A stretch of 64,000 nt of DNA from Bacteroidota bacterium (GCA_035687895.1 DASRUE010000196.1:1489-65488), one strand, 5' to 3'; numbered from the stretch's first letter, positions 36,191 to 53,580 are shown. A program made the numbers and translations. Notes: generated by a model not told the origin, from the letters alone.

Positions 36191-36193
36191 CTC

Positions 36194-37322: not shown

Positions 37323-37703
37323 ATGAGAATCTTGGTTGTTGACGACAATAAGGGTTTCCTCAACGTCATGGGTGACTTGCTGCGCGACTATGGTTACGAG
37401 GTTTTTCTTGCGGAGGATGGAAAGCAGGCCCGGGAGTTCTTGGAAGGAGAGAAGGTCGACGTTATCGTATCCGATGTTTTTATGCCGACGCTTGACGGGA
37501 CTCGGTTCCACAGTTACGTTCGTGAGTTTACGGACTTTCAGGACATTCCTTTCATCTTCATCTCAGGGTACGATGACGAGCACACACGAAATGTAGTAGT
37601 TGATTCCAAGATCGATTTCTTCATCAGCAAAACAGCGCCGGTGGAGACGCTCGTATCTCTGATTGAAAGCCTGAAACCAACAAAGCAGCTAAAGTCCGTC
37701 TGA
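37323..37703 (+). CDS. Single-domain response regulator (PilH/PilG-like position at head of pilus cluster)
   Basis: It has ILVVDDNKGF and VIVSDVFMPTLDG. AGAAGG sits 6 nt upstream of the ATG. The tabled start is a TTG 6 nt upstream. Confidence 0.8.
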   Translation: MRILVVDDNKGFLNVMGDLLRDYGYEVFLAEDGKQAREFLEGEKVDVIVSDVFMPTLDGTRFHSYVREFTDFQDIPFIFISGYDDEHTRNVVVDSKIDFFISKTAPVETLVSLIESLKPTKQLKSV

Positions 37704-37755
37704 TACGCGCGTCATTCACTGTAGAAAACCAATCTTTGCCAAGGAGCGGAACACT

Positions 37756-39627
37756 GTGTCAATTTCGGGAAATGTACATCCCCTACAACGGCCCCTCGAG
37801 GATGAGGAAGCATCATCCGTGTCGTCACACCCAGCGAACGACACCATGTCGAACGGTGCTGGACAACCATTCATGTCCTCCTTCATGGAGCATTTGGTCC
37901 GATCCAAGATCGTGACTGAGGAAGTTGCACTTCGGGCGTCGGCATGGAAACACGAACAGAATGGACGCGGGAAGAAAAGCCTCGTGGAAATCCTTGCGGA
38001 TGAGTTCAGCGTTCCACGGGACATCCTATATAATGAAGTCGCTCACTTCTACTCCTTTCGCATGATCGACCTTAATGATCGGAATGCAAGGAGGCTACCT
38101 CCGTCGACGGTCAACAAACTTCTTGCTGGGCTTCCGGAGTCAATCTACCAACTGGCACTCAAGCACAAAGTTCTTCCATACGAAGTTCCCGAAAACCAGC
38201 CGGACAAAATGTTGGTCGTTACCCCCAACCCTTCTGATCGCGAAGTGTATGAAGTAGCACGTTCGTTCACCTACAAGAAGTTCGAAATATGTTACATGAA
38301 GGAGCGAGACTGGGCGGAGTTCTGGCGCCAGGTCACCTTGGATAAGCAGCAGGTTGTTAGTGGGCTCGGCGGCTCAGACTCGGTTTTTGAGGAAGAGGAT
38401 GCAGAGTTGGACTTGGTGCTGGATAAAGAGATCAACAGAAGCCAGTTGATTGCGCTGGTGGAAAATCTCTTCGCCGATGCTGTGCGTGTCGGTGCCAGTG
38501 ACATTCACATCATGCCTAAAGGAGCACGCAAGACGGTAGTCTCATTCAGACTTGACGGAAGGTTGACTGAGTGGTACACGATTGAGGATGCTCGCGCAGA
38601 AGCCGTAGTTGCGGTTGTTAAAGGCAGGGGGTTGAACCTCGACAGGTTTGAGCGTATGGCCGCCCAGGATGGCTCGGCGCAGAAGGTTATCGATAATCAA
38701 GTGGTCAGGTTTCGCATTTCGATTATTCCAGTTGTCTCGCGTGAGCTGTCCGGCAAGTTCGAATCCGTCGTGATCCGCATTTTGAAGGACGCGGACGCAT
38801 CCGTTACCCTGGAGGCAATCGGTTTCGATCCCTACTCATTGAAGGTTTTCGGTGAGGCGATCGCGAAACCGCATGGCATGGTAATTCTAACGGGACCAAC
38901 GGGGAGCGGAAAAAGCACGACACTCGTTGCTGCGCTTCGGTCCGTGATGCATCCATCACGTAATACTATTACAGTCGAAGACCCAGTGGAATATCTGCTT
39001 GAAGGAGCGCGGCAGGTAAAGCTGAACCATAAACTCAATTTCGATGATGCCTTGCGCGCGATCCTTCGTCACGATCCTGACATTGTGATGGTGGGAGAGA
39101 TCCGTGATCGAATTACCGCAGATCTTGCCATCAAGCTTGCAAATACCGGCCATCTGACATTTTCGACCCTGCACACGAATGACGCGCCAAGCGCTGTCTC
39201 GCGGCTTTTCAAAATAGGTGTGGAACCCTTTCTTCTTGCTCAGGCACTAAATATTGTAGTTGCGCAACGTCTTGTCCGAAAACTCTGTGAAAAGTGCAAA
39301 CAGCCTGTTTCACAGGTGAGCGATATGCTTCTCGCAAAGACAGGATTTACGCAGGAAGAGGCAGAGACAACAACGTTTTACCGGGCAGTGGGATGTATCA
39401 ATTGCGTTGGTGGGTTCAAGGGCCGTACTGCGATTCACGAGTCGCTGTATGTGACGCAAGAAGTCCGAGACATTATCCTTGAGAGTGGAGACAAGATCGA
39501 CGTTAACGCCATCCGTGATACGGCTGTGGCCCACGGCATGCAGACGCTTCGACAGTCTGGTATTGAATTGGTGAAGAGTGGCATCACTACAATGGATGAG
39601 ATCATCAGTGGCACCACAAACGACTGA
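37756..39627 (+). CDS. pilB: GspE/PilB-family secretion ATPase (type IV pilus extension ATPase-like), copy 1
   Basis: It has the Walker A LTGPTGSGKSTTL, the Asp and His boxes, and a tetracysteine CxxC...CxxC. Its N-terminal GSPII_E_N region carries MshEN-like repeats. It uses a GTG start, with AAGGAG 9 nt upstream. Confidence 0.85.
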   Translation: MSISGNVHPLQRPLEDEEASSVSSHPANDTMSNGAGQPFMSSFMEHLVRSKIVTEEVALRASAWKHEQNGRGKKSLVEILADEFSVPRDILYNEVAHFYSFRMIDLNDRNARRLPPSTVNKLLAGLPESIYQLALKHKVLPYEVPENQPDKMLVVTPNPSDREVYEVARSFTYKKFEICYMKERDWAEFWRQVTLDKQQVVSGLGGSDSVFEEEDAELDLVLDKEINRSQLIALVENLFADAVRVGASDIHIMPKGARKTVVSFRLDGRLTEWYTIEDARAEAVVAVVKGRGLNLDRFERMAAQDGSAQKVIDNQVVRFRISIIPVVSRELSGKFESVVIRILKDADASVTLEAIGFDPYSLKVFGEAIAKPHGMVILTGPTGSGKSTTLVAALRSVMHPSRNTITVEDPVEYLLEGARQVKLNHKLNFDDALRAILRHDPDIVMVGEIRDRITADLAIKLANTGHLTFSTLHTNDAPSAVSRLFKIGVEPFLLAQALNIVVAQRLVRKLCEKCKQPVSQVSDMLLAKTGFTQEEAETTTFYRAVGCINCVGGFKGRTAIHESLYVTQEVRDIILESGDKIDVNAIRDTAVAHGMQTLRQSGIELVKSGITTMDEIISGTTND

Positions 39628-39850
39628 TTCGTTAAAGTTCGTCATTACAATAGGTATCGGAAATTCTGACTCTCGTCCAGTTACTTTTACCACAAGCATC
39701 CAAAACCCACACCAGAAAGCCTGTTTTGACGGTCGCTCAATGAATTCTAATTCTGGCATGGCGCTTGGGACATTCTGTTGCACAAACACAAATGAATACA
39801 AACAACTAACTCCCACATTTAATCACATTCACCAATAAAGGAGCTCCACC

Positions 39851-40243
39851 ATGGGACAGCAGCAACTTTTGTTAATCATCCTTGGCGTCATCGTTGTCGG
39901 TATCGCAGTGGCGGTCGGCATCACGATGTTCCAGGATAACGCAGTGTCGGCGAACCGCGATGCGGTCACGAACGATCTCGTGAACCTCGCCTCACGTGCG
40001 CAACAGTACTATCGTCGTCCGACGGCGTTGGGTGGCGGCCAGGGTGACTTTGACGGTCTGACCCTCGTAAAGCTGACCTCCAAGTCAATCAATGCAAACG
40101 GTTCATACGGGCTGACCTCGGCAGCAGGCCAGACAGCTGTTATCGAAGGATATGGCACGGAGAATGGCAATGACGGTTCGACGGTGATTCATCTTACGAT
40201 GAACGTGCTTTCGGATAGCACGTACATTGTAGAAGTTAACTAA
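39851..40243 (+). CDS. Pilin-like protein with a non-canonical N-terminus (MGQQQLLLIILGVIVVGIAVAVG...), candidate major subunit
   Basis: It has a strong SD, AAAGGAG, and an N-terminal hydrophobic helix at residues 5-27. A terminator hairpin follows it. It lacks the G-F-T-L-I-E prepilin motif. Confidence 0.55.
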   Translation: MGQQQLLLIILGVIVVGIAVAVGITMFQDNAVSANRDAVTNDLVNLASRAQQYYRRPTALGGGQGDFDGLTLVKLTSKSINANGSYGLTSAAGQTAVIEGYGTENGNDGSTVIHLTMNVLSDSTYIVEVN

Positions 40244-40252
40244 CGCATGCTT

Positions 40253-40292
40253 GAACGGGCTTCCCTTGTCGGGGAGCCCGTTCACTATTTTC
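40253..40292 (+). terminator. Intrinsic terminator/attenuator between tandem pilin-like paralogs
   Basis: A GAACGGGCTTCCC-TTGTC-GGGGAGCCCGTTC stem-loop is followed by ACTATTTTCAC. Confidence 0.5.
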
Positions 40293-40308
40293 ACAAAACG
40301 GTAAAGCC

Positions 40309-40719: not shown

Positions 40720-40796
40720 ACCGATGTTCGGAAGCAACAGTCTGAGCAACACAAAAAAGAGGATGTAGGAATCTAGACAGAGGATTAGTACAAACA

Positions 40797-40840
40797 GGGG
40801 GGAGTCGTAATAGGGGGTACCTCCCCTTGTTGGTTCGCTT
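40797..40840 (+). terminator. Candidate terminator hairpin
   Basis: A GGGGGGAG...CTCCCC stem is followed by TTGTTGGTT. Confidence 0.3.
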
Positions 40841-40960: not shown

Positions 40961-42340
40961 ATGGCAGAGTTCAGAATCGAAGGTGTCACTGCTGGTGGAA
41001 AACCGGTCCAAGGTATCCTGGAAGCGGACTCCACCCGGTCGGCCAAGCAGAAAGCAGCAGTCATGGCGCAGCAGCGAAAATTCAAGCTGTTGCATGTTGT
41101 TCCTCGCTCCACGTGGGTGTACAAAGTACAGCGCGGGACGGAGAAACCTGTAATTGGTGAGCAGAAAGCCTTCACCAAAGGAGAGGTTCAGGAAGCCCTT
41201 CAGAAAATGGGCTACCGTGTAATCCGAATTCAGAAGCGGCTCATCAACTTCAAAGCAAGACCGCCCGCTACTGAAATCGTGACCTTCGTGCGGGTGAGTG
41301 CGGACCTTATACGGCAGAAGCTTCCGTTCAATGAGATCATGCAGTTGCTGGTGAACGACATTCAGAACAGGACCCTGCGCGAGGCGATCAAGGATATCAA
41401 CGCCGAACTGAAACAGGGCAAAGACAGCGAGCGTGCGTTCATCAAGCACGAAGCAGTTCTCGGTCGGTTCACCGCCCACATGCTCGGCTTGGCCTCGAAG
41501 AGTGGTAACATGGCCGAAATCTATGACAGCACGGCGAAGTTTTTGGAGCGCCAGTCGGAATTTAAAAAGAACCTCAAGAGCGCGCTGATCATGCCCATTG
41601 TGACTCTCTTCGTTCTGTTCGGTGCGGTGGTTTACTATGTCGGATACATCTTTCCGGCGACTGCCAATTTGTTCCGGAAGTTTAATATTGAACTACCGCC
41701 AATGACCCGGGCAACGCTCGCGCTTAGCGATTTTCTGGTGGAGAACATTGTGATAATTCTCATCGGGACAATCATCCCCACCATTCTCGCAGTTCGTTTC
41801 TTCACGACGGAAAAGGGGCGTTTCATTCTTGATCGTTACATCTGGAAGGTCCCCGCAATGGGACAACTCCTCCATAAAATGAGTATCGAGATCTTCTGCC
41901 GGGTATTCTATGCCCTGTACAGTGGGGCGGGCGAGAATATCGAGGTCATCCGTATGGCATCTGAGGCATGCGGCAACAAGTACATGGAGCACCAAATCAA
42001 GACCATCGCACTTCCCCTGATGATTCAAAAAGGTGCGGGTATCACCGAAGCGTTCGAAGCGACGGGTGTCTTTACGAAAACTGCGATTTCGCGATTCCAC
42101 TCGGGAGCCGAGACAGGGACAGTAAAGAACACGGCCCTTCAGCTGGCGGAGTACTACGAGAAGGAAACGTCGTACAAAATGAGGAATGCGATTGACTATA
42201 TTCAGTTGATGATTTCGATGATCATCATGGTTGTGTTGACGGCCCTGACGATTGTGTCGTCCGAGACGGCGACCATTCGGCCCAAGAACCCGGCGCTGGG
42301 TCACGCCACAGTGCAGCACGCTGAAAAGTCCTTGACGTAA
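40961..42340 (+). CDS. pilC: Type IV pilus/T2SS platform protein (two T2SSF domains)
   Basis: It has duplicated GspF-like domains and three TM segments. It is 459 aa, with SD AAGAGGAA. Confidence 0.85.
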   Translation: MAEFRIEGVTAGGKPVQGILEADSTRSAKQKAAVMAQQRKFKLLHVVPRSTWVYKVQRGTEKPVIGEQKAFTKGEVQEALQKMGYRVIRIQKRLINFKARPPATEIVTFVRVSADLIRQKLPFNEIMQLLVNDIQNRTLREAIKDINAELKQGKDSERAFIKHEAVLGRFTAHMLGLASKSGNMAEIYDSTAKFLERQSEFKKNLKSALIMPIVTLFVLFGAVVYYVGYIFPATANLFRKFNIELPPMTRATLALSDFLVENIVIILIGTIIPTILAVRFFTTEKGRFILDRYIWKVPAMGQLLHKMSIEIFCRVFYALYSGAGENIEVIRMASEACGNKYMEHQIKTIALPLMIQKGAGITEAFEATGVFTKTAISRFHSGAETGTVKNTALQLAEYYEKETSYKMRNAIDYIQLMISMIIMVVLTALTIVSSETATIRPKNPALGHATVQHAEKSLT

Positions 42341-42376: not shown

Positions 42377-44164
42377 ATGGCACAGATTGACATTACAGAT
42401 AAGATAGGGTTCGCACTCCTCAAAAAAGGAATCATTGACTACGAGACGCTGGAGAAGTCGCTCAAGGTCAAAGACTCCGAAGGGAAGAAGAACCGGCGGA
42501 ATCTAGGGCAGATCCTCGTCCACGATTTCAATGCCGACCACGACGCGGTGTTCAGAGAAGTTGCCGATCTCTATGCGTTCCGGGAGATCTACCTTGCTGA
42601 TGAAAACATCGAGAAACAACGGATTGATTTCATTAGGAAGTTTGTTGATGCTCTTTCCGAGAGCGCACGCGACATGATGTTGCAGGCCAAGATTCTCCCA
42701 CTCAAGTTCGACGAGAAACAACCGGATAAGTTGGTGGTAATTGCCGCCGACCCGACCGATCGACGCATCCCGCTGGTTGCCCGCAATTTCGGCGTGAAGA
42801 AGTACGAGGTTGTGTACACCCGCCTCAAGGAACTGCAGAACCTCATGGAACAGGTTGTTCCACCGGAGAATGAGTTCCTCCGACTTCTTGAGGATTCACA
42901 GGTCGGCATCGAGGTAAAGGAAGATGAAAGCGCCGTTGATGAAGAGGCGCTCGAAGCGGAGATCGGAAAAAGCGCGTTGGTTAACCTCGTGGAAGGCTCG
43001 TTGATTGAAGCCGTGCGCCAGGGGGTGAGTGATATCCACATTATCGCAAAGGAAGGGAACCGAACCGAGTTTTGGTTTCGAGTGGATGGGAATCTGAAGC
43101 TGTGGCATGTGCAAGAGAACACGATGCCCGAGGCAGTTGCCGCAGTTGTTAAAGACCGTTCCAAGAATATAGACCGTTTCGAACGCGAAATGTCTCAGGA
43201 CGGTTTCATCCAGCGGCTTATCGACGACCACATGATCCGCTTCCGCGTCTCCATCATGCCGATCGTGGGTGTCGAATTCAGACACAAGTTTGAAAGCATC
43301 GTCATCCGTGTGCTGGACGATCGAAAGGTTATCACTGACCTGGATAAGCTGGGCTTGCAGGGCCCAGCGAAAGATTTCTTCTACAAAGCCATTGAGAAAC
43401 CTCAGGGGATCGTCATCCTGACCGGGCCGACTGGAAGCGGTAAGAGCACAACTCTGGTTGCTGCCTTGCACCAGGTGATTGACCCGACGGTGAATGTCCT
43501 CACAGTCGAAGACCCGGTCGAATATATTATACGCGGTGCACGTCAGCTGAAAATTGGCCCAAAAATGAACTTCGATCTGGCCATCCGCGGTATTCTCCGG
43601 CATGACCCGGACATTGTGCTCGTCGGCGAAATGCGTGACAAAGCAACGTCAGAAATCGCCATCAAGCTCGCTAACACAGGCCACCTCACGTTCTCCACGC
43701 TTCACACAAACGATGCACCGAGCGCTGTTGCTAGACTGTACAAAATGGGGATCGAGCCATTTCTGATCGCGTATGCCATTAATATAATTGTGGCCCAGCG
43801 TCTTGTCCGGACGTTGTGCAAAGTCTGCAGACGCCTCATCCCCAAGGAGGAAATTGACCGGGACGTATACCTGAAATTTGGTTTCGCGGAAGAAGACCTT
43901 GAAACACGGACAATGTACGAAGCGGTTGGTTGCGATAAGTGTAATGGAGGATACAAAGGACGTGCTGCAATCCACGAGGCGCTGTATTTCACCCGTGAGA
44001 TTCGCGGGTTGATCGTCAAGGCCGGTGGCGACATTGATGAGGAACAGATTCGCAACCAGGCGATGAAAGATGGGATGTGGACCCTTCGCAGGGCGGGTAT
44101 TGAGAGGATCAAGGATGGTATAACGACGCTCGAAGAAATTGCATCAGCAACAACGGATGATTAA
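42377..44164 (+). CDS. GspE/PilB-family secretion ATPase, copy 2
   Basis: It has the Walker A LTGPTGSGKSTTL and a tetracysteine. Its N-terminus carries MshEN-like motifs (IGFALLKKGIIDYETLEKSL; RNLGQILV...). Confidence 0.85.
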   Translation: MAQIDITDKIGFALLKKGIIDYETLEKSLKVKDSEGKKNRRNLGQILVHDFNADHDAVFREVADLYAFREIYLADENIEKQRIDFIRKFVDALSESARDMMLQAKILPLKFDEKQPDKLVVIAADPTDRRIPLVARNFGVKKYEVVYTRLKELQNLMEQVVPPENEFLRLLEDSQVGIEVKEDESAVDEEALEAEIGKSALVNLVEGSLIEAVRQGVSDIHIIAKEGNRTEFWFRVDGNLKLWHVQENTMPEAVAAVVKDRSKNIDRFEREMSQDGFIQRLIDDHMIRFRVSIMPIVGVEFRHKFESIVIRVLDDRKVITDLDKLGLQGPAKDFFYKAIEKPQGIVILTGPTGSGKSTTLVAALHQVIDPTVNVLTVEDPVEYIIRGARQLKIGPKMNFDLAIRGILRHDPDIVLVGEMRDKATSEIAIKLANTGHLTFSTLHTNDAPSAVARLYKMGIEPFLIAYAINIIVAQRLVRTLCKVCRRLIPKEEIDRDVYLKFGFAEEDLETRTMYEAVGCDKCNGGYKGRAAIHEALYFTREIRGLIVKAGGDIDEEQIRNQAMKDGMWTLRRAGIERIKDGITTLEEIASATTDD

Positions 44165-44215: not shown

Positions 44216-44782
44216 ATGAACCTCGGTCAAAGCATGCTGGTCATTGGTGCAATATTGCTTCTGGGGATTCTTACCCTTAACGCCAACAGGACAGTGATGG
44301 AGACAAATGATGTAACAAATTCAAGCGAGTTCGGAATTGCCGCGGTGTCGCTGGCGACGTCTCTGGTTGAGGAGGCAATGGGGAAGATGTTCGATGAAGT
44401 TGTGGCTGACACGGTGCCTCCAACGATGGCTCTGTCGATTCTCTCGACTACCCTGCAGAAGGAATCAGGCGAGCGGTATCGCGGCGGCACAAACGACTTT
44501 GACGATATTGATGACTACAATAACCTGTTTGTAGTCTATACAAGCCCGAATGACATGAGCGCGGTTGCCGGTGCGGATACGATTCTCGTTGTTCCTGGGT
44601 TGAGAGCCAGATACTATGTGAGAGCAAGAGTCAACTACGTCAACAGTACAGCTCTTGATGACACCACTTCTGCGCGAACGTGGCACAAGAAGATCCGAGT
44701 GGAAGTCACGAGTCCCCGGATATTACCGATCGGGCAGGCACAGGATACACTCGTGTATCCGGCCGTAATGAGTTATTGGTGA
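44216..44782 (+). CDS. Pilin-like/minor-pilin candidate (N-terminal TM helix then L.N.NR motif)
   Basis: The N-terminus is MNLGQSMLVIGAILLLGILTLNANRT. It has no prepilin Gly-Phe/Glu5 motif. Confidence 0.4.
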   Translation: MNLGQSMLVIGAILLLGILTLNANRTVMETNDVTNSSEFGIAAVSLATSLVEEAMGKMFDEVVADTVPPTMALSILSTTLQKESGERYRGGTNDFDDIDDYNNLFVVYTSPNDMSAVAGADTILVVPGLRARYYVRARVNYVNSTALDDTTSARTWHKKIRVEVTSPRILPIGQAQDTLVYPAVMSYW

Positions 44783-45488: not shown

Positions 45489-46820
45489 ATGGGAAAAGCA
45501 AGTATCGTCTATGTGATCGGGTTGACTCTTGTTCTGGGTATCGCACTGTTCAACATCAACAGATCCAGCACGGACTCGATGGATACATATACCGAGTACT
45601 ATGGACGAACGATGGCGCACAACATCGCATCGGCAGGAGCGAACATTGCAACCAGTGCGCTACTGGTTCCTCCAGTGGCAATTGTCTCCGGCACCGATTC
45701 GTTCGCAGGGGGGACATACACCGTTCGGGTAGACAGCTTGAATTCAAACGGAGATAGTGTAGTGGTGGTGTCCACATCAAAGATTGATCTCTACGACAAC
45801 ATTGCTGAAAACCAAATCATCCGCGATACCATCGTGGCGAAACTCAGGCACCGACGGTTTGCGGAGTATGCTTATTTCTCCCAATCGGAGACGAACGGTT
45901 ACCTTGCTCCTGGGAGCACTGCGGCTCCATCAGGTGTCAATATGTGGAAAATTACAGGTGATTCACTTTTTGGACGAGCTCACACAAACGGTCGATGGAA
46001 TCTCTCAGGGAGACCGTATTTTGAGGATCGAGTAACGGCTCAGTTCGCAGCAAACCTTGCGGCAGGAGCAAATCCTATTTATAACAAGGGGTATCAGTGG
46101 CAAGTATATCTTAATCGTCCTGCAAGCAACTTGACCAATCTTGAGGCACGCGCAAACGCTGGCGGAGCCTTATTGACGAATAACGATGTTGCACTTACTT
46201 TTTTCCCTAATGGGAATGTGAATGTCCGGATTCCACCGACGACTGGCGGAACGCGCAACGATACAATTCCTATCTCGACCCTTACAAGTACGGGCGTTGT
46301 GGCCGTGAAAAACGGAGACGTGCGCGTCAAGGGGACCTACCAAGGTCAGTTGACTGTCGTGGCCCTCAAGGGAACAACTGCAGGTAATACCAAAGGGAAC
46401 ATCTGGATCGATGGAAATATTGTTGCGGCAACGAACCCGAACGGCAACATGTCTTCACCTGATATGCTCGGTCTGGTTGCCCAAAGAATGGCATATGTGA
46501 CAACCCGGGATCCAGCCACGGGGCTTTGGATCCCGCGTACATCAGCATCGGTTCTGAATATTCAGGCTGCGATCTATACGCACGAAGGGACGTTTGCCGC
46601 GCAAGAGTACAACAACACAGGTCTCGGGCTCTGCGGGAGAATCAACCAGTTCGGGGCTCTGGCGATGGCTGCATCCACTTCGACCGGTCTTATGAGCGGC
46701 GGTGTGATCTCTAATGGGTTTTTAAAGACAATTCGGCATGATCCACGGTATGATGAACAAGCGCCTCCTGGCTTTCCAGCGTCCGACAGCTACGTGCTTG
46801 TTTCGTGGTGGGAAAAATAG
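45489..46820 (+). CDS. Large pilin-like/pilus-tip candidate protein (443 aa, N-terminal TM helix)
   Basis: The N-terminus is MGKASIVYVIGLTLVLGIALFNINRS. It is Gly/Asn/Thr-rich and predicted to be beta-rich. Confidence 0.4.
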   Translation: MGKASIVYVIGLTLVLGIALFNINRSSTDSMDTYTEYYGRTMAHNIASAGANIATSALLVPPVAIVSGTDSFAGGTYTVRVDSLNSNGDSVVVVSTSKIDLYDNIAENQIIRDTIVAKLRHRRFAEYAYFSQSETNGYLAPGSTAAPSGVNMWKITGDSLFGRAHTNGRWNLSGRPYFEDRVTAQFAANLAAGANPIYNKGYQWQVYLNRPASNLTNLEARANAGGALLTNNDVALTFFPNGNVNVRIPPTTGGTRNDTIPISTLTSTGVVAVKNGDVRVKGTYQGQLTVVALKGTTAGNTKGNIWIDGNIVAATNPNGNMSSPDMLGLVAQRMAYVTTRDPATGLWIPRTSASVLNIQAAIYTHEGTFAAQEYNNTGLGLCGRINQFGALAMAASTSTGLMSGGVISNGFLKTIRHDPRYDEQAPPGFPASDSYVLVSWWEK

Positions 46821-46981: not shown

Positions 46982-48214
46982 ATGATAGCAACAGCAGTAA
47001 AAACATTGCAGGATATCGCAGCATCCATCCCGGATACAGCCCCAGGCATGGAACGGCAGATGCTAATTGGGGATTTGGTCTCGAAACAATCTCCCGCCGA
47101 GCGTACTGCCCTACGGAAGCTCATGGACAGCTACCTGACGCGGATGAGCAAAATCAACGCATCAGATATAGATATGGGCGGTTATGGATGTGGCGGTCAC
47201 ATCTGGTATCGCGTGTATGGTGACAAGAAGGTCGATGCTGCGATTGGGAAATTCACACATGATGAGTTTAACGTTCTCATTCAGAGCGTCTTGATTGAGC
47301 GGCAGCGCCTTTTCCTGTATGAAAACCGAAATCTTGATTTCTCATACAGTATCGTTGAAGACGACAAGATGTTCAGGTTTCGCGCGGACGCGTACTTCGA
47401 CCTCGATCAACTGGCGCTCAACATGCGCGCTATTAACGCGACGGTTCGTCCGTACAAGAATCTGGAACTCAATCCGAATGTAACTAAAGCGCTCAGTCTC
47501 TCCTATACGCAGCAAGGGCTCACGCTTATCACTGGCATCACGGGTTCGGGGAAAAGCGCTACACTCGACAGTATCATCGACGCAAACAACCATACCGTAG
47601 ATGCGCATGTTGTGATCATTGCATCCCCGGTGGAGTATGTTCATAAACCGGATCGTTGCATTATCCGCCATCGAGAAGTGGGACGAGATGTTCTGTCGTT
47701 CAAGGAAGGGGCCATTCAGGCATTGCGACAAGACCCCGATATCATTGTAATCGGAGAAATGCGCGATCCGGATACAATTATGACGGCTCTCGAAATCACA
47801 GATAGTGGTCATAAAGTGTTCTCGACGCTCCACACCGCCTCGGCCGTGGAAACCATAGATCGTGTCATTGGCGAAGTTCCACCGGTCGAGCAAGAACGTG
47901 TAAGGATGCGTCTTGCGGACACGTTGAGTTGTGTGATGTCACAGAAACTGGTTCCGAGCTTGGACGGGAAGCTGGTTCTCGCAAAAGAAGTTATGGTAAT
48001 GATCCCGTCCGTACGGGCAGCGATTAAGAACAATAATACGGGTGAAGTCTACCAGATGATGGCCGAATCAGGTGATCTGGGAATGATCACCCTTGAGCAG
48101 GACCTGAAAAGATTGTACATGCAGAAGAGGATATCGCTGGAGAATGCTATAGTCACGGCAAACAACAAGCGACGCTTCCAGCAGATCATGAACTTAACTC
48201 CTGTGGGAGACTGA
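46982..48214 (+). CDS. pilT: PilT/PilU-family retraction ATPase with an ~55-aa N-terminal extension
   Basis: It has the Walker A ITGITGSGKSATL, a KINASDIDMGG (ASDLH-like) region, and the His-box region STLHTASAVETIDR. Confidence 0.8.
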   Translation: MIATAVKTLQDIAASIPDTAPGMERQMLIGDLVSKQSPAERTALRKLMDSYLTRMSKINASDIDMGGYGCGGHIWYRVYGDKKVDAAIGKFTHDEFNVLIQSVLIERQRLFLYENRNLDFSYSIVEDDKMFRFRADAYFDLDQLALNMRAINATVRPYKNLELNPNVTKALSLSYTQQGLTLITGITGSGKSATLDSIIDANNHTVDAHVVIIASPVEYVHKPDRCIIRHREVGRDVLSFKEGAIQALRQDPDIIVIGEMRDPDTIMTALEITDSGHKVFSTLHTASAVETIDRVIGEVPPVEQERVRMRLADTLSCVMSQKLVPSLDGKLVLAKEVMVMIPSVRAAIKNNNTGEVYQMMAESGDLGMITLEQDLKRLYMQKRISLENAIVTANNKRRFQQIMNLTPVGD

Positions 48215-48272: not shown

Positions 48273-49826
48273 ATGGCTTCTATGAAAGGGCCGAACAAGA
48301 CAGTCCTTGGAATCTTTGTCGACGGTCTGGATGTTAAGCTCGCTCATCTGAGCGTAAAAGGAAAACGGGTCACCGTACATGAGTTGCGGTCTGGGACCCT
48401 TGTAGCGAAGCTGGAAGAGCGCAAGGCAGTTGAAGTTGGCAGCATGTCCGACACCGCCGATGCGTTCAGCTTACCCGCTGGTATTTCTGCGGATTCCGGC
48501 ATTGAAGCCCAATCGGAGGACAACAATGCCGTCTTGCTGGGCCTTCTTGCCCAGTATCCTTCCAACAAGTACTCACTGACCTATAGCATCGCCGAACCAG
48601 CGATCTACTATCACCTCCTGGAAAGTGATTTTGGCTTGAAAGGGAAGAAGCTCAAGGAACGAATCCTTGCAGAGCTTAGAAACATTCGCGCCTTTCAGCC
48701 TGCAGCTGATGCTGTAGATGCCATTACCACGGATGAGGGGAACCTCCTCTGTGTGGTCCGCGAAGATGGGCTTAGCCTCATCAATTCTCTTGAGAACATC
48801 AAGGGGTTCATGGGTAACAGGTTGCCCCGGATCCCGGCGATCGACAGCGCTGACATTTCGTTGATGAACCTTGTCAGGCTGAACTATGACCTTCAGCCCC
48901 AGGAAGTTTCCGTTATCATTTATGTGGGTGTTGAGTTTACCCGCTTGATCTTCATGAGGGGGAGTCAGTTCTATCAGTTTGCCCCGATCCTTGGAGAAGG
49001 GTACGATTCGCCGAACCTCCAAAACACGGTCTACAGCAGGCTATTGCTGGAACAGGATAATCTAGCCATCCCTCGCATCAGTAAGATCATACTTGCAGGC
49101 GAATGTCGTCGCATCAACTTCAAAGAGTTCCTCACCCAGCAACTCCCTGATCAAGAAGTCGACTACCTGTTGACGCCTCAGCTTGATTCCAGTCCGTTGC
49201 CTCCTGAACAACAGGAGTCAATCTCGGAGTTTGCCGTGCCTATTGCCGCGGCATGGAAGGTGTTGGATCCCACGAACCCGAGAATTTACAATATTAACCT
49301 CTTACCCGCGATTGTGCGGGAAGGTCAGCGTGTCTTCAAACTGGCATGGCACGGATATCTCCTCCTCCTCCTGCTCTTCTTTTCGACCCTGTTCTTCACA
49401 TGGTCGATTGCGCGAAAGCAGCGCGATATCGTCGAGCAGTCTGACGTCCTCGAACGAAAGAAAGTCCAGCTTGCGGAGAATGAGGCAGTGCAGAATTCCA
49501 TCATTGACCTCCAGCAACAAATAGCCCGCTACCAGACTTCCCTGGCATTGTATGACACCCTTGTGCCAGGTAGTGAACGATGGAGCAAGGTCTTCACCCA
49601 GTTTAGCCACGGTGTGGAGGACTTGAATTCGATCTGGTTGACGGACTTCTCAACTGGTGATGCCGGCGTGATGACTGTAAACGGGTTTACGGTGTACCGG
49701 ACCCGCATCCCGCGGCTCGCAACATTGTTTGATAACACGCTCCTGAAGGAAGTAAATGTGCAGGCGATTCGTGAGCAGGCCGTCTATCGGTATAAGATTG
49801 AAGTACCTGCCCCGTCCGGGCAGTAG
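48273..49826 (+). CDS. PilM-PilN fusion protein (actin-like PilM domain, then TM helix and coiled coil)
   Basis: The first ~340 aa resemble PilM (VLGIFVDGLDVKLAHL...). A TM helix LLLLLLFFSTLFFTWSI follows at ~350, then a Q/E-rich coiled coil. Confidence 0.6.
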   Translation: MASMKGPNKTVLGIFVDGLDVKLAHLSVKGKRVTVHELRSGTLVAKLEERKAVEVGSMSDTADAFSLPAGISADSGIEAQSEDNNAVLLGLLAQYPSNKYSLTYSIAEPAIYYHLLESDFGLKGKKLKERILAELRNIRAFQPAADAVDAITTDEGNLLCVVREDGLSLINSLENIKGFMGNRLPRIPAIDSADISLMNLVRLNYDLQPQEVSVIIYVGVEFTRLIFMRGSQFYQFAPILGEGYDSPNLQNTVYSRLLLEQDNLAIPRISKIILAGECRRINFKEFLTQQLPDQEVDYLLTPQLDSSPLPPEQQESISEFAVPIAAAWKVLDPTNPRIYNINLLPAIVREGQRVFKLAWHGYLLLLLLFFSTLFFTWSIARKQRDIVEQSDVLERKKVQLAENEAVQNSIIDLQQQIARYQTSLALYDTLVPGSERWSKVFTQFSHGVEDLNSIWLTDFSTGDAGVMTVNGFTVYRTRIPRLATLFDNTLLKEVNVQAIREQAVYRYKIEVPAPSGQ

Positions 49827-49859: not shown

Positions 49860-50756
49860 TTGTCATACAAAATACGAAATAGCGTCGTGCTGGGCGTCCT
49901 GCTCTTCCTCGTCCTTGGAGTAGGAGTGTATGTCCGCGGCTTCAATCTTCCGGGGAAACTCAACAAGATTGAGACAGAGATCCGCACCATTGAGGACCAG
50001 CTGCAGAACACGCCAAACTTGGTGGCGGAGTTCAACGATCTGAGCGCCAACCTTGCGGACACAAAGAAGCGCTGGGAAAACCGGAACAAGGATATCCCAC
50101 CGGTGGATGTTACGTCTCAGACCTATGCATATTTCAGCCGATTGATTGACTTGAGTGGCGATGTGAAACTTGACCTTCTGTACACTGGAGTAGAGCAAAA
50201 AGGGAACTACGGGTTCAATGTGTACAATTTAAGGGGCGAGGCGCCGTTTGAAAACTTTTACAGGTTCATCTGGTACCTTGAAAACGGTCGTAAACTCTAC
50301 AAGATCAAAAAAATGAATGTGAAGGGGCTTGAGATAGCTCCCAAAGAGGATGAGCCGGGCGGCATTTTGGTCACCTTTGAGATGGTCGTCCATGCATATT
50401 TCTCGTCGGTCGCAGAGCTTGCGAGCGCTCCCGGTGAACGAACCATAACGCCAAATTATCTGATGATTGATCCTTTCAATCCGGTGATTTCGAGCGACAT
50501 TCCGGCCAACCTCCGGAAGCTGATAGAGATTGAGCGTTCCGATTTGAAAGCAGTCATTCCAGGAAAGGCGTTTGTCCTTGATCAGACAAACGCGTTCAGA
50601 ACACTGACGGAAGGGGATGAAGTTTACCTTGGCTATGTGACCAAGATCGACCCCGAACTAGGACGGATCGAGTGCACGCTCAACAAGGGCGGCATCATTG
50701 AGAAGGTGGAATTGAAGATACGCTACGGCATTCAACAAAACGTTGTGCAAAAATAG
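49860..50756 (+). CDS. PilO/PilN-family inner-membrane pilus alignment protein
   Basis: It uses a TTG start, with AAAGGAGAG 5 nt upstream. An N-terminal TM helix is followed by a coiled coil and then a ferredoxin-like periplasmic region. Confidence 0.5.
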   Translation: MSYKIRNSVVLGVLLFLVLGVGVYVRGFNLPGKLNKIETEIRTIEDQLQNTPNLVAEFNDLSANLADTKKRWENRNKDIPPVDVTSQTYAYFSRLIDLSGDVKLDLLYTGVEQKGNYGFNVYNLRGEAPFENFYRFIWYLENGRKLYKIKKMNVKGLEIAPKEDEPGGILVTFEMVVHAYFSSVAELASAPGERTITPNYLMIDPFNPVISSDIPANLRKLIEIERSDLKAVIPGKAFVLDQTNAFRTLTEGDEVYLGYVTKIDPELGRIECTLNKGGIIEKVELKIRYGIQQNVVQK

Positions 50757-50769
50757 GATCGAGGACAGC

Positions 50770-52023
50770 ATGAAAACACGCACTATTGTCTGCATACTTA
50801 CTCTGCTGGCAGCCAGCATGGCACCGGCCCTTGGTCAGACAAACCCCGAGGAGCGACGCTCGTTCCGGGAGTACACATCTCCTGAAGAACTCGTCTCAAT
50901 TGCTCCGACTGCCACGATGGACAAGGCGCTTGCAGCCATCAGCGAGGTAAGTCGGAAGTTCGTCGGGAAGATCATTATTGATACGGAGCGGCGGACGATG
51001 CCGGTCAACGTCGACATCCAGGGCGTGCAGTGGCGCGACGCCCTTGAGATGATCTGTCGCAAAAATGAGATCTGGTACTCGGAGTATGAAAACTATATCC
51101 AGCTCACATCGTCCGGCAGCGCAACGACTGCCGATGGTGCGCGGCAGGGAGCCGCCGCCGCCGGGAGCCCCGATATCCAGAAGGAATTTGCCACCTTCAG
51201 GAGCCGGGAAATCAAAATCTCGGGAGTTTTTTTGGAAGTGAATCTGAGCAAACTCGATGAAGTCGGATTGAACTGGACTTTCATGAAGAGTACATCAGAC
51301 TATTCGATCAATTCCTCACTCGCCGCGGGTGATAGGGTTTCTAGTGAGATCTTCAAAACGGAAATCACACCGAAGGTGAGCTTCGCCAACATTAACATCC
51401 TCGCAAAGATGTTCTCGAACTACAACCTTGGTGAGATTCTTTCAAGTCCGCAAATCAACGTGCGTTCGGGGGAAGATGGAAGGATACAGGTAGGGCAGGA
51501 CTTCTCCATTAAAGAGCGTGACTTTGCCGGTAACCTGATCGATAAGTTCTACAGTGCTGGAACGATCATCAAGGTGAAGCCGCAGGTGATCAACGAGCAA
51601 GGGGTGAACTTCGTGCACATGGTGGTTGATGTTGAGCGCAGCTCGGTGGTGCCCGGGTCCGTTAGCACAATCATCAACAAGACGAAAGCAAGTACCAACG
51701 TCCTTCTGCTCGACGGTGAAGAAACAATCATTGGTGGTTTGTACACCACAGAGGTCACCACGGTGCGTTCAGGTATTCCATTTCTGAAGGACCTGCCTTG
51801 GTATGTCTTTGGTCTCCGGTATCTGTTTGGGTATAACAGAGAGGAAGAGACGAAGAAGGAGCTTATCATCCTTCTGAAAGCTGAGCTCGTCCCGACATTG
51901 CAGGAACGGATTACGCAGAAGACCAGGCCGGGTGAACTTTACGAGCAGTGGCGGGCGGATCGTGCGAAGGAAGAGCAAAACCTCAAAGGCGAGAGCGCCG
52001 CAGACGAAAGTGAAGAAAAGTAA
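50770..52023 (+). CDS. pilQ: Secretin (type II/III secretion system protein family), short form
   Basis: It has a signal peptide. The C-terminal secretin domain is NVLLLDGEETIIGGL...SGIPFLKDLPWYVFGLRYLFG. The start was set to the ATG (MKTRTIV) in the tabled frame. Confidence 0.75.
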   Translation: MKTRTIVCILTLLAASMAPALGQTNPEERRSFREYTSPEELVSIAPTATMDKALAAISEVSRKFVGKIIIDTERRTMPVNVDIQGVQWRDALEMICRKNEIWYSEYENYIQLTSSGSATTADGARQGAAAAGSPDIQKEFATFRSREIKISGVFLEVNLSKLDEVGLNWTFMKSTSDYSINSSLAAGDRVSSEIFKTEITPKVSFANINILAKMFSNYNLGEILSSPQINVRSGEDGRIQVGQDFSIKERDFAGNLIDKFYSAGTIIKVKPQVINEQGVNFVHMVVDVERSSVVPGSVSTIINKTKASTNVLLLDGEETIIGGLYTTEVTTVRSGIPFLKDLPWYVFGLRYLFGYNREEETKKELIILLKAELVPTLQERITQKTRPGELYEQWRADRAKEEQNLKGESAADESEEK

Positions 52024-52059
52024 TCCTCCATGGGAACCACAACATTTAGGGGACGGTCA

Positions 52060-53517
52060 ATGAAGAGAACTATGCTCATGCTGGCGCTCGTTGCCACGAT
52101 GGCACTCGTCCTGTTTGCGTGCAAGAGCGACGAACAGGGGGCAACACAGGGTGAAGGTGTCATTACCGGAGTTGTCACGGACGCGGCAACGGGGAATGCA
52201 CTGGCGTCTGTGACTCTGCAGGCACAGACGATTGGTGGCGCAACCCAGACAGCTACCACGGACGCACAGGGTAACTTTCGCTTCAGCTTTACCACTGATA
52301 GTGCCAAGTCTGTCACAATCTCCGTCACAAAATCGGGGTACCGCGATACGTCGGTTGTTGTTCAAATTCAGCCCGGTGTTGTCGTGACCCTTGGCCTCCA
52401 GATAGCTGCGCGATCACCAATTTCTGGTGTTGGAGGAGGCAGCGGGGTTGCGCAGACTATTGCCTTCCTCGGAGCCAGCCCCCGGCAAATCTCAGTCTAT
52501 GGTGTCGGCGGACTGGAGACATCCATACTCGGATTCGAAGTACGCGATTCACTTGGACTCGCTATAGATGCAGCACATTCCGTTAGCATGAGTTTTCAGA
52601 TTGTCGGTGGATTGAACGGCGGCGAATACATTTCGCCACTCTCTGTCACCACTAATGCCATCGGTCAGGCCTATACCACGTTCAATAGCGGGATCCGGGC
52701 AGGCGTCTTTCAGGTTGTTGCAACGGTGACTTTGGCCGGACGCCCGCCGATCACTTCGAATCCGGTCAGGTTGATCATTACGGCTGGATTCCCGGATCAG
52801 GCGCACTTCACAATCGGCATCGACCGCTTTAATTTCCCGGCACTGGGAATTGTCGGCAAGCGGAATAGTGTAAGTGTTCTCGTGGGCGATAAGTACACAA
52901 ACCCGGTCCAACCGAACACTGCTGTGTACTTCAGAAGTAGTGCAGGGGTTATTCAGCCCAGCGTTTTTACGGACGCAAGTGGCCAGGGGACTGTGGACCT
53001 CATCAGTGGAAACCCGGCACCATTTGGCATCTATGCGGCTCGGCCGCCATATGGTCCGGATACAGCGGGCTATCACCATATCGTCGCGCGAACCGTGGGT
53101 GAAGGTGGTGTGACGGTTCAGGACAGCACATTGATCCTTTGGAGCGGCGGGTCCATAATCTCAAATGTCAATCCCACGACTTTTAATATCCCGGACGGTG
53201 GTTTCCAAGACTTCACCTTTACTGTCTCTGACTTCCTCGGGCACCCACTGTCGGAAGGGACTATCATCAGTGTGCAGGCCACTGTGCCACCTCCCCCCGA
53301 TCCAAATGCTCAAGTTAATCAGGTCCAGCTTGCTTTCGGGCGGAATGGCTCACTGACCTTGCCGGATGTTATATTGCCTGGACCCGGAAGGACGGCTTTC
53401 GGCTTCCGCCTTAGCGATGGGAGTACGATTGTCGCGGTAACACCGGTTACTGTCTCAATCACGGTGACGAGCGAGAACAATAACGCTTACTTCACGTTCT
53501 TCGGTATTGTCAACTAG
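52060..53517 (+). CDS. Lipoprotein with a CarboxypepD-reg-like domain and Ig-like repeats, last gene of the pilus cluster
   Basis: It has a lipobox LFAC. GVITGVVTDAATGNALASVTLQ...DAQGNFRF resembles CarbopepD_reg. AGGGGA precedes the ATG. Confidence 0.6.
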   Translation: MKRTMLMLALVATMALVLFACKSDEQGATQGEGVITGVVTDAATGNALASVTLQAQTIGGATQTATTDAQGNFRFSFTTDSAKSVTISVTKSGYRDTSVVVQIQPGVVVTLGLQIAARSPISGVGGGSGVAQTIAFLGASPRQISVYGVGGLETSILGFEVRDSLGLAIDAAHSVSMSFQIVGGLNGGEYISPLSVTTNAIGQAYTTFNSGIRAGVFQVVATVTLAGRPPITSNPVRLIITAGFPDQAHFTIGIDRFNFPALGIVGKRNSVSVLVGDKYTNPVQPNTAVYFRSSAGVIQPSVFTDASGQGTVDLISGNPAPFGIYAARPPYGPDTAGYHHIVARTVGEGGVTVQDSTLILWSGGSIISNVNPTTFNIPDGGFQDFTFTVSDFLGHPLSEGTIISVQATVPPPPDPNAQVNQVQLAFGRNGSLTLPDVILPGPGRTAFGFRLSDGSTIVAVTPVTVSITVTSENNNAYFTFFGIVN

Positions 53518-53546
53518 TATCCGTTAGCGATTTCTGTGGTATCAAA

Positions 53547-53580
53547 CCCCGGCGAGGTACTCGCCGGGGTTTTGTCATTT
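53547..53580 (+). terminator. Strong rho-independent terminator ending the pilus cluster
   Basis: A CCCCGGCGAG-GTA-CTCGCCGGGG stem-loop is followed by TTTTGTCATTTGTT. Confidence 0.75.

Follow-up and report, generated by a model that had tools for sequence, protein, structure and literature searches.

A type IVa-like pilus gene cluster with leaderless pilin-like subunits and no linked prepilin peptidase gene

Introduction

The prepilin peptidase has so far been treated as a core component of every type IV filament system. In the archaeal pilins processed by EppA (Methanococcus), Gln is found at position +1 and pyroglutamate has been reported; these pilins carry a real basic leader and are associated with a dedicated A24 peptidase and FlaI/PilB-like ATPases, with no PilT or secretin.

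In the 'T2SS' of Cytophaga hutchinsonii (CHU_3191-3201), a Peptidase_A24 gene (CHU_3197) forms part of the cluster and is situated between those for the ATPase and the major pseudopilin (Wang et al. 2017, PMC5553014), and the Bacteroidetes 'T2SS' was placed with the type IVa pili (Denise et al. 2019). According to the M. roseus genome paper, pilD was not found in the closed genome of that organism. Here, a gene cluster of the type IVa kind is described from an Ignavibacteria-like soil bacterium.

Organization and Distribution of the Cluster

The pilus cluster is located at positions 37317-53580 of the window (the whole 64-kb stretch of DNA that was analysed), and it consists of 14 genes, all on the + strand (Table 1). 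A receiver gene, pilB, two pilin genes, pilC, a second pilB, three minor-pilin-like genes and pilT are followed by the genes for the PilN fusion, the PilO-like protein, the secretin and a lipoprotein, and then by a terminator; the PilB/PilT ATPases, the PilC platform, the PilN-containing bitopic protein, the PilO-like protein and the secretin thus surround five subunits. An earlier sequence-only reading had counted 13 genes, which is one too few. Its description of a single co-oriented cluster and its gene positions agreed with the Pfam and NCBIfam matches to machine parts, and the strong terminator it had placed at the cluster end was recovered as a GC-rich hairpin.

Table 1. Features of the pilus cluster and its downstream boundary (window positions).
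Feature	Position	Strand	Evidence or remarks
CheY-like receiver, stand-alone	37317..37703	+	Pfam Response_reg E 6e-22
PilB-type assembly ATPase, copy 1	37756..39627	+	T2SSE E 3e-101; TIGR02538 PilB 421 bits vs GspE 386
Major pilin, 130 aa, leaderless	39851..40243	+	N-terminus MGQQQLLLIILG, starting MGQQQLLL
Hairpin directly 3' of major pilin gene	40252..40284	+	14-bp stem, 9 GC pairs, then T-rich tail
Second pilin paralogue, 136 aa	40309..40719	+	N-terminus MGTQQLLL; 55% identical to first pilin (alignment)
PilC/GspF inner-membrane platform	40961..42340	+	T2SSF E 3.5e-29, two stretches; GspF and PilC NCBIfam models ~140 bits each
PilB-type assembly ATPase, copy 2	42377..44164	+	T2SSE E 1.7e-97; TIGR02538 417 bits vs GspE 362
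Minor-pilin-like protein, 188 aa, GspI/PilV position	44216..44782	+	N-terminus MNLGQSML
GspJ/PilW-type minor pilin, 207 aa	44814..45437	+	N-terminus MSVILDLI, invariant Asp
Large TM-anchored protein, 443 aa, GspK/PilX position	45489..46820	+	N-terminus MGKAS; DUF4900
PilT-type retraction ATPase	46982..48214	+	TIGR01420 pilT_fam 313.6 bits, model positions 2-341
PilN fusion: ~340-aa cytoplasmic domain, one TM helix, periplasmic PilN domain	48273..49826	+
PilO-like bitopic protein, extra C-terminal beta domain	49860..50756	+
Short outer-membrane secretin	50743..52023	+	Pfam Secretin E 7e-28
Lipoprotein with CarboxypepD_reg, Big_1 and invasin-D3 domains	52030..53517	+	Pfam; lipobox LFAC read from sequence
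Intrinsic terminator, cluster end	53544..53572	+	13-bp stem, 9 GC pairs; GC-rich hairpin
uvrA, next gene past terminator	53629-56523		UvrA by Pfam

The pilin family comprised 1759 clusters at 50% identity and was present in at least 513 species genomes, with members in Ignavibacteriota, Melioribacteraceae, Kryptoniota, Calditrichota, KSB1 and Zixibacteria. The synteny pilin(s)-PilC-PilB-(trio)-PilT-PilN-PilO-secretin was conserved in 41 complete-looking loci; far from being a one-off, the cluster is the standard pilus locus of much of the FCB superphylum. When 78 related loci were compared, PilC was found immediately behind the pilins (one to three tandem copies per locus) in 63, PilB behind PilC in 55 and PilT in 45. 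The second PilB copy is the conserved core copy. The first copy, present in only 9 of the 78 loci, is an accessory paralogue, and together with the receiver, an accessory regulator found in 31 loci and often located 3' of the secretin instead, it forms an accessory module. The three minor pilins, missing as a GspI-J-K-like trio from 26 of the 41 complete-looking loci, are likewise an accessory module, and the lipoprotein, located 3' of the secretin in only 5 of the 78 loci, is accessory.

Components of the Machine

The NCBIfam models assigned the assembly ATPases to the PilB kind, the TadA and ComGA models reaching only 49 and 208 bits, respectively, against 421 for PilB. For PilC, the GspF model scored marginally above the PilC model. 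The PilT score was just below the TIGR01420 cut-off of 319, with the full model length covered. The receiver probably starts at the ATG at 37323. Read from the ATG at 50770, the secretin has about 417 residues including a signal peptide; PilQ (TIGR02515, 77.5 bits) was its best NCBIfam model, followed by GspD (72 bits), both below their cut-offs, and AMIN and N0 domains were not detected in it.

A profile of 29 orthologues of the PilN fusion matched Myxococcus PilN (3jc8_N) with an E of 3e-6 over residues 378-486, and Pfam PilN was matched in 5 of these orthologues. No match was detectable for the ~340-aa N-terminal cytoplasmic domain, and PilM is therefore not demonstrated; the 'PilM-PilN fusion' of the sequence-only reading holds for its PilN part only, although the architecture resembles that of GspL or of a PilM-PilN fusion. 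With the PilO-like profile, the best PDB match was Myxococcus PilO, with an E of only 0.15 but collinear over residues 12-163, and Pfam PilO was weakly matched in 2 of 25 orthologues. The C-terminus of this protein (residues 229-270) matched IcmG/DotF (E 6.6e-5), and this DotF-like part may replace PilP.

N-Terminal Regions and Folds of the Subunits

The N-termini of the five subunits (MGQQQLLL, MGTQQLLL, MNLGQ, MSVILD and MGK) were compared with the class III signal, namely a basic leader, Gly at -1, a hydrophobic residue at +1 and Glu at +5. The signal was not met, given that no leader, no Phe at +1 and no Glu at +5 were present: in all five proteins the start codon directly adjoins the hydrophobic N-terminal helix, and no basic residue stands ahead of the helix. 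The polar head is Gln-rich in the major pilins and the 188-aa protein, and is formed by Asp in the 207-aa protein and by Lys in the 443-aa protein. Each of the five starts is preceded by an in-frame stop at a distance of 2-19 codons (2 codons for the 188-aa gene), with no start codon between, and the absence of a class III leader is therefore real and not a misannotation. In related loci, the motif Met was the first possible start in 113 of 120 pilin ORFs (78 species-level loci). No above-noise match to N_methyl/TIGR02532 or any pilin Pfam was obtained with the pilin-like proteins or with 38 diverse family members.

It had been claimed that every subunit lacks G(-1), F(+1) and E(+5). The leader, Phe and Glu are indeed missing, but 'lacks G(-1)' is too strong, because a conserved Gly adjoins the polar head of four of the five subunits. 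The Gly-polar pair was conserved in three families and was kept even where its distance from Met1 shifted (MNLGQ vs MVNTGQ; MGK vs MFGK); in the 443-aa family, K or R follows the Gly immediately. The N-terminus of the 207-aa protein has no Gly, and neither do those of many of its orthologues.

The MGQQQ head is the most conserved part of the major pilin. An N-terminus of the form M-G-[QSNT]-Q-Q-L-L-L, without K or R at positions 1-5, was found in 108 of 150 representatives (50% identity). Gly stood at position 2 in 104 of 108 major-pilin representatives; Ala or, rarely, Met replaces this Gly in a few family members. The first acidic residue is D29. In the HMMER alignment to Geopilin, the canonical position 5 fell on L8, not Q5, so the helix register relative to canonical pilins is ambiguous. 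An SD sequence precedes the ATG of the first pilin, and the hairpin behind this gene is probably an attenuator or a partial terminator.

According to confident structural models, the major subunit is predicted to adopt the type IV pilin lollipop fold (alpha1 helix and 4-strand sheet) and the 207-aa subunit the GspJ/PilW fold; the best fold match of the latter was a Thermus type IV pilin, and GspJ proteins were also matched. The structural comparison proposed earlier thus gave pilin folds for both subunits tested, as predictions, the 188-aa and 443-aa proteins being without fold evidence. In the 188-aa family, M1, G4 and Q5 (alignment, 19 orthologues) and an FDDxDDYN motif are invariant; no Pfam or PDB match was obtained for this protein, and its assignment as a pilin rests solely on architecture and position. 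The gene was called as 161 aa in some contigs. DUF4900 was matched in 15 of 16 orthologues of the 443-aa protein (best E 2.8e-6), for which no solved relative was found; gene order and size are the grounds for inferring a tip pilin, with no fold evidence. By hhalign, the 188-aa and 207-aa families were not linked to the major pilin family, the 443-aa family being outside the comparison.

Search for a Prepilin Peptidase Gene

Neither the A24 signature (GxGDxK) nor a phmmer match to PilD, with a query validated against Pfam, was found in the 64-kb window, which confirms the claim that no PilD-type peptidase gene is present in cis. Likewise, no A24 peptidase was found in 1.32 Mb from 88 related loci (~20 kb per genome, including the 78 clusters; whole genomes were outside the search). 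The Melioribacter-labelled contigs among these (L079, L082, L086-L088) carry the MGQQQ-type pilin and the cluster. Leaderless pilins that escape detection, together with a missing peptidase, would produce just such a result as that reported for the closed genome of M. roseus, in which pilD was not found. The outcome that would have made this an ordinary locus, i.e., N_methyl matches with a normal cleavage site and a canonical pilD, did not occur in these searches.

Interpretation of the Locus

The core of the type IVa kind, the two predicted pilin folds, the absence of leaders and the lack of a linked A24 gene support the earlier proposal that this type IV filament system is divergent and possibly unlike the described families in subunit processing and filament chemistry. 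We favor, with rather more confidence than doubt, a type IVa-like, retractile pilus machine that is encoded on the chromosome and has a clade-specific design, with subunits usable without A24 cleavage; no expression or filament data exist. The pilins would insert N-in/C-out via the SRP/Sec pathway and, barring possible deformylation or Met removal, would already be 'mature', and therefore PilB/PilC would extract them into the filament without PilD-type A24 cleavage or N-methylation. The first pilin, with its strong SD and its own hairpin, may be the bulk subunit, and uncharged Gln contacts could stand in for the salt bridge between Glu5 and the N-terminal amine. The 188/207/443-aa trio, in which the I-J-K order is kept, might act as a priming tip complex like GspI-J-K or PilV-W-X. 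PilT would retract the fibre, leading to adhesion or twitching and possibly DNA uptake, and the receiver with the extra PilB could be a lineage-specific regulatory add-on.

The wider claim, which we consider as likely as not, is that retractile pili are built across much of the FCB superphylum (at least 513 species genomes) from Gln-head leaderless pilins that are never cut or N-methylated, the start codon replacing the processing site and an uncharged Gln or fMet head replacing the Glu5 salt bridge. If true, the prepilin peptidase, a step thought universal for type IV filaments, would be dispensable.

It is possible, though we consider it doubtful, that the pilins are still cut after the conserved Gly (MG/QQQ, MNLG/QS, MG/KA) by an unlinked A24 or other enzyme, which would remove an uncharged leader of 2-4 residues and leave an N-terminal Gln that could cyclise to pyroglutamate. 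Gly2 of the major pilins, the invariant Gly4 adjoining an invariant Gln in the 188-aa family and the Gly before K/R in the 443-aa family all fit such processing, and the Gly-polar pair kept at shifting distances from Met1 is how a G/Q or G/K site would look. However, none of these leaders contains a basic residue, Gly is missing from the N-termini of the 207-aa protein and of many orthologues, and we know of no precedent for a 2-residue leader. The rare Met2 variants of the major pilin also speak against it; from the mutagenesis of Strom and Lory, Met at position -1 is reportedly not expected to be accepted by PilD-type enzymes. As for the enzyme, a single prepilin peptidase, encoded apart from the cluster, often serves several systems (PMC6668835), and a canonical pilin like that of Geobacter has been published for one Ignavibacteriales MAG (PMC7399161), so that some members may own PilD. 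On the other side stand the lack of an A24 gene in the 1.3 Mb around the 78 clusters and the M. roseus report; moreover, the Bacteroidetes 'T2SS' retains its A24 gene within the cluster (PMC5553014), and therefore the loss of linkage here is a real difference.

Cleavage aside, it is improbable that the locus encodes not a surface pilus but a type II-like secretion or competence pseudopilus, i.e., a short periplasmic piston pushing substrates or DNA through the short secretin. PilT belongs to the conserved core (45 of 78 loci) and is not known as a T2SS component; both assembly ATPases score higher as PilB than as GspE. The minor set does resemble GspI-J-K in order, with GspJ proteins among the matches of the 207-aa member, but the trio is absent from most complete-looking loci and the best fold match of this member is a Thermus type IV pilin. 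The GspL-like architecture of the PilN protein, the nearly equal PilQ and GspD scores of the secretin and the marginally higher GspF score of PilC are compatible with a pseudopilus; in addition, the M. roseus authors tied these genes to type II secretion, and protein secretion does occur through the neighbouring Bacteroidetes system, itself grouped with the type IVa pili.

Finally, an ordinary type IVa locus with miscalled start codons and a normal G-F-T-L-I-E leader upstream is virtually impossible: only the general point that the starts of short pilin genes are sometimes miscalled by software (as with the 161-aa calls) favors it, and it is refuted by the stops upstream of all five starts without an alternative start between, and opposed by the motif Met as first possible start elsewhere, the SD ahead of the first pilin ATG and the conservation of the MGQQQ head.

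Comparison with Known Systems

Tad/Flp and Com pilus criteria were not met, since no Flp-like subunits were found and the TadA and ComGA scores were far below PilB. Weak NCBIfam matches point to the pilus-like cluster Amuc_1098-1102 of Akkermansia: the PilN fusion matched the family of the PilM-like Amuc_1101 (E 7e-6), and the secretin that of Amuc_1098 (E 5e-11). These matches cover only the TM/coiled-coil and secretin core, far below cut-offs, and no relationship between the pilin families emerged from the comparisons made. With the archaeal EppA-type pilins the subunits share, as a resemblance only, a Gln-rich head directly after Gly and possibly an uncharged N-terminus instead of N-methyl-Phe and Glu5.

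The T2SS (GspD-O) has a GspI-J-K-like trio in the same order, a GspL-like fusion, a GspM/PilO-like partner and one compact operon in common with the present system, which differs in having PilT, ATPases nearer PilB and a trio that is dispensable in many lineages. No matches to GspC, GspG or GspO were found in the cluster, and T2SS criteria were not met. The Cytophaga 'T2SS' comes from the same superphylum and is likewise a compact cluster, with a divergent major pilin escaping standard searches and PilM/N/O/P-like proteins detected only by remote-homology tools. In contrast to the present system, which has PilT, leaderless pilins and no A24 gene, its minor pseudopilins retain the canonical N-terminal helix (PMC5553014) and no PilT was reported there.

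Compared with the type IVa pilus (Pseudomonas, Myxococcus and Thermus PilA/PilBCD/PilT/PilMNOPQ), the present subunits have no class III leader, Phe1, Glu5 or N_methyl motif, and no pilD adjoins pilB/pilC. The PilN domain shares its polypeptide with a 340-aa cytoplasmic domain that is unrecognisable, there is no separate PilM or PilP, the secretin is only ~420 aa without detected AMIN/N0, and everything lies in a single locus. Both systems nevertheless have PilB/PilT-type ATPases, PilC, a PilN domain, a PilO-like protein, a secretin, a major pilin of alpha1 helix and 4-strand sheet (predicted here), a GspJ/PilW-type minor pilin and a hairpin behind the major pilin gene. Of the criteria of the TFF superfamily, the PilB/GspE ATPase, the PilC/GspF platform and, in predicted models, pilin-fold subunits were fulfilled, but the class III signal was not, and an A24 peptidase was absent from the 64-kb window and the 1.32 Mb of related loci. 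Of the PilM-PilN-PilO-PilP alignment subcomplex of the type IVa pilus, PilN was matched significantly, PilO only as the best-ranked match, and PilM was undetectable. Two further criteria of this pilus were fulfilled, with a PilT-family ATPase just below its cut-off and a secretin for which PilQ was the best model, also below cut-off.

Gene organization of the pilus cluster

Fourteen co-oriented open reading frames (ORFs) were found on the + strand at 37317-53580, followed by a hairpin and then by uvrA. The sequence-only reading, which had described a type IVa pilus-like machine with non-canonical subunits and no prepilin peptidase in cis, picked out a real feature and interpreted it correctly (14 ORFs, leaderless candidates and no gene for an A24, PilD-type, prepilin peptidase in the window); its count of 13 genes has to be raised to 14, the number that its own list names. 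GC content and skew were unremarkable, the flanks consisted of housekeeping genes, and the window matched soil and sediment metagenome contigs, plus an NCBI MAG labelled Bacteroidota. No significant Pfam or NCBIfam match was obtained for seven of the ORFs (the 130-, 136-, 188-, 207-, 443-, 517- and 298-aa proteins). The strong hairpin past the pilin1 gene resembles the attenuators or partial terminators that often follow major pilin genes, a resemblance that points to pilin1 as the bulk subunit.

Features of the pilus cluster, in window positions
Feature	Position	Strand	Evidence or location
Stand-alone receiver	37317-37703	+	Pfam/NCBIfam
PilB-type ATPase, copy 1 (PilB1)	37756-39627	+	TIGR02538 421 bits vs GspE 386
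Pilin1, major-pilin paralogue, 130 aa	39851-40243	+	
Hairpin, 14-bp stem	40252-40284		directly 3' of pilin1 gene, 5' of second pilin gene
Pilin2, major-pilin paralogue, 136 aa	40309-40719	+	
PilC/GspF	40961-42340	+	Pfam/NCBIfam
PilB-type ATPase, copy 2	42377-44164	+	TIGR02538 417 bits vs GspE 362
Minor-pilin-like protein, 188 aa	44216-44782	+	
Minor-pilin-like protein, 207 aa	44814-45437	+	
Minor-pilin-like protein, 443 aa	45489-46820	+	
PilT-family ATPase	46982-48214	+	TIGR01420 313.6 bits, whole model spanned
PilN fusion, 517 aa	48273-49826	+	
PilO-like protein, 298 aa	49860-50756	+	
Short secretin	50743-52023	+	Pfam/NCBIfam
Lipoprotein, CarboxypepD_reg and Big_1 domains	52030-53517	+	Pfam/NCBIfam
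GC-rich hairpin, 13 bp	53544-53572		3' of cluster, 5' of uvrA

The pilin candidates lack a class III leader

The five pilin candidates, namely pilin1, pilin2 and the trio of 188-, 207- and 443-aa proteins, begin with MGQQQLLLIILG, MGTQQLLLIVVG, MNLGQSMLVIG, MSVILDLIWS and MGKASIVYVIG, respectively. In-frame stops lie 5, 19, 2, 15 and 5 codons upstream (same order) with no start codon between, so a class III leader cannot be encoded in any of the five genes; for pilin1, an AAGGAG Shine-Dalgarno sequence was present. A start-codon artefact was excluded as the source of the odd N-termini by these stops and by the related loci, given that no possible start precedes the motif Met in 113 of 120 pilin ORFs of 78 loci. 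The finding centres on the missing leader, for which the N-terminal evidence is solid.

None of the five candidates carries a Lys or Arg ahead of the hydrophobic helix. Positions 3-5 of the major pilin are Gln and its first acidic residue is D29, so that there is no equivalent of Glu5. An invariant Asp was found at position 6 or 8 in the 207-aa family, G4 and Q5 are invariant in the 188-aa family, and a G followed by K or R is retained in the 443-aa family. When the major pilin was aligned to Geopilin with HMMER (query 9-49, mature 6-46), G17, T25 and F27 fell opposite G14, P22 and Y24, and L8 opposite Glu5; in the zero-offset register, Q5 is opposite Glu5. The helix register relative to canonical pilins is uncertain, but neither of the two places an acidic residue at the Glu5 position.

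Identity of the putative subunits

N_methyl and TIGR02532 matched none of the pilin candidates of the window, and searches of the five proteins and 38 family members with Pfam and NCBIfam, together with a PDB-sequence profile search, returned only noise-level matches to ComP_DUS, Geopilin and PilA. Since pilin detection at the sequence level was unsuccessful, fold prediction was needed. The machine parts, the missing leader and, as predictions, the pilin folds are shown.

Comparison by hhalign gave no significant match of the 188- and 207-aa families to the major pilin family, PDB-sequence profile searches with the 188-aa and the 443-aa family found nothing, and DUF4900 was the sole match of the latter (15 of 16 orthologues). 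The 188- and 443-aa genes lie on either side of the 207-aa gene, where GspI and GspK would be expected; the pilin nature and role of these two proteins are inferred, without fold evidence. The 188-aa protein contains an acidic motif, FDDxDDYN (residues about 94-101), and D97, D99, D100 and D113 are invariant among 19 orthologues; by analogy with pseudopilins, this region may be a calcium site.

Alignment proteins

The profile of the 517-aa protein (29 orthologues) matched Myxococcus PilN at residues 378-486 (E 3e-6), and a Pfam PilN match was seen in 5 of the 29 orthologues. The N-terminal cytoplasmic part of 340 aa matched neither PilM nor anything else among PDB sequences, not even the PilM chain in the PDB entry of the matched PilN, or in Pfam (29 orthologues). 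Of the proposed PilM-PilN fusion, the PilN part is therefore supported and the PilM part is not. In architecture (cytoplasmic domain, one TM helix and PilN-like domain), the protein equals GspL. The best PDB match of the 298-aa protein was Myxococcus PilO, weak (E 0.15) but collinear, and two of its orthologues weakly matched Pfam PilO. Its C-terminal beta domain (residues 229-270) matched IcmG/DotF of type IVB secretion (NCBIfam E 6.6e-5; PDB 7muc E 0.16), from which we infer that the C-terminus may replace PilP as the connector to the secretin.

Prepilin peptidase and the question of cleavage

The A24 signature GxGDxK was absent from all window ORFs of at least 80 aa. When P. aeruginosa PilD (sequence confirmed in Pfam: A24_N_bact E 9e-33, Peptidase_A24 E 7e-28) was used as a phmmer query, neither the window nor 6436 ORFs taken from 1.32 Mb of loci yielded anything, even with filters off. 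Weak matches in the loci (E 0.37-2) were rejected, as Pfam identified none of the three weakest candidates as A24 and one as a PMT_2 glycosyltransferase. The peptidase is absent in cis; its absence genome-wide has not been demonstrated. A canonical Geobacter-like pilin is listed for one Ignavibacteriales MAG in a bioanode study (PMC7399161), which counts against a blanket claim of A24 absence.

The main rival reading is that an unlinked enzyme cleaves after the conserved Gly. The G-Q and G-K pairs are retained despite shifts in their distance from Met1, as such cleavage would have it; on that account the reading is a serious one, although we regard it as rather unlikely.

Distribution and gene order

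A search of 5.8 billion proteins yielded 3454 pilin clusters, and the exact MGQQQLLLIILG start was present in 118 of the 120 best. An exhaustive search of 50%-identity representatives gave 1759 clusters, 807 of them at E<=1e-10; in almost every alignment, both proteins are matched from residue 1 onwards. The consensus of the head is M-G-[QSNT]-Q-Q-L-L-L, with Gly2 occasionally Ala or Met. When one genome per species was scanned with pilin-family alignment A1 (the divergent alignment A2 was too variable), relatives were found in at least 513 genomes, with labels including Ignavibacteriota, Melioribacteraceae, the cultured Stygiobacter electus, Candidatus Kryptonium, Calditrichota, KSB1 and Zixibacteria. 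Some pilin-bearing contigs (L065, L067, L012, L060, L061 and L078) carry the MAG labels Actinomycetota, Candidatus Kerfeldbacteria, Chitinophagales or Chitinophagaceae, which are probably binning or labelling errors, not true hosts.

Some homologues of the globular domain (P0121, P0126, P0132, P0169, P0180 and P0182) are missing the MGQQQ head; the domain follows lipoprotein or Sec signals, or N-termini with a zinc ribbon and a TM segment, and in several of them it is repeated 3-5 times (proteins of 376-581 aa). This pilin domain has been reused outside filaments.

The gene order in the 78 loci runs pilin (1-3 copies), PilC, PilB, the optional trio, PilT, PilN fusion, PilO-like protein and secretin. 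The stretch that runs from PilC through the PilN fusion is contained in 41 loci, with the trio present in 15 and absent from 26; in two further loci, the trio lies divergently upstream of the pilins (L068, 5964-8388; L080, 6822-9183). The trio is a mobile sub-module, which may be encoded elsewhere in genomes without it in the cluster. The receiver and first PilB, arranged as in the window, are an accessory module confined to a minority of loci (PilB1 in 9 of 78), and in many other lineages the receiver gene lies 3' of the secretin.

The upstream genes (31468-36409) are also conserved (L001, L007 and L009) and encode FeoB, FeoA, Fur, deoxyhypusine synthase, chlamydial-type histone-like Hc1 (35876-36067) and ribosomal protein S21; among these, the genes for deoxyhypusine synthase and Hc1 are unusual in bacteria. 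Given the conserved order of cluster and upstream genes, the locus is vertically inherited chromosomal equipment. Farther away (16-21 kb upstream; 15735-18682 and 18860-21337) are an M16 (insulinase-like) peptidase gene pair and a hybrid PAS-GAF histidine kinase that carries two receiver domains; no evidence tying either to the pilus cluster was found.

Proposed mechanism and significance

We propose that the cluster builds a retractile, type IVa-like pilus. The subunits would be synthesised "pre-matured" and inserted N-in/C-out, PilB and PilC would polymerise them without A24 cleavage or N-methylation, the GspI-J-K-like trio, where present, would prime assembly, and PilT would retract the fibre. 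That the subunits go unprocessed, that the trio acts at the tip and that the pilus serves in adhesion or twitching are inferences. A T2SS-like system instead of a pilus is weakened by PilT in the core and by ATPases that score higher on PilB than on GspE.

Should the pilins prove to be unprocessed, the mechanism of membrane extraction and polymerisation would need neither leader removal nor the Glu5 salt bridge, which bears on current assembly models, and the system would be a natural minimal one for reconstitution. The inference of piliation, adhesion, twitching and competence in abundant soil, sediment and hot-spring lineages would change as well. What surprises a specialist is that a phylum-spanning lineage of type IV pili has no leader peptides. 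Given that cultured hosts exist (Melioribacter roseus and Stygiobacter electus), the dispensability of prepilin processing is directly testable.

Type IV pilins are defined by the class III signal peptide and the A24 peptidase, and PilFind, Pfam N_methyl and the TXSScan pilin profiles are built on these. A pilin-profile match is a requirement of the generic model with which Denise et al. detect TFF systems (PMC6668835). As no profile that was run detects the subunits (TXSScan's own were not among them), tools of this kind would probably miss the system in part or altogether, and it has probably been undercounted or overlooked. The M. roseus genome paper illustrates this, the cluster being present on Melioribacter-labelled contigs; pili go unmentioned in the I. 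album genome paper. No description of leaderless pilins, or of this system in Ignavibacteria, Calditrichota or Kryptonia, was found in the literature.

Comparison with known systems

Among known families, the type IVa pilus comes closest; the window system differs from it in lacking the class III signal, a defining feature also of the whole TFF superfamily, and in having no linked A24 peptidase, the second such feature. Its nearest odd relative is the Cytophaga-type "T2SS" of Bacteroidetes, whose cluster still includes an A24 gene and whose minor pseudopilins have canonical helices (PMC5553014), and which Denise et al. place with type IVa pili (PMC6668835).
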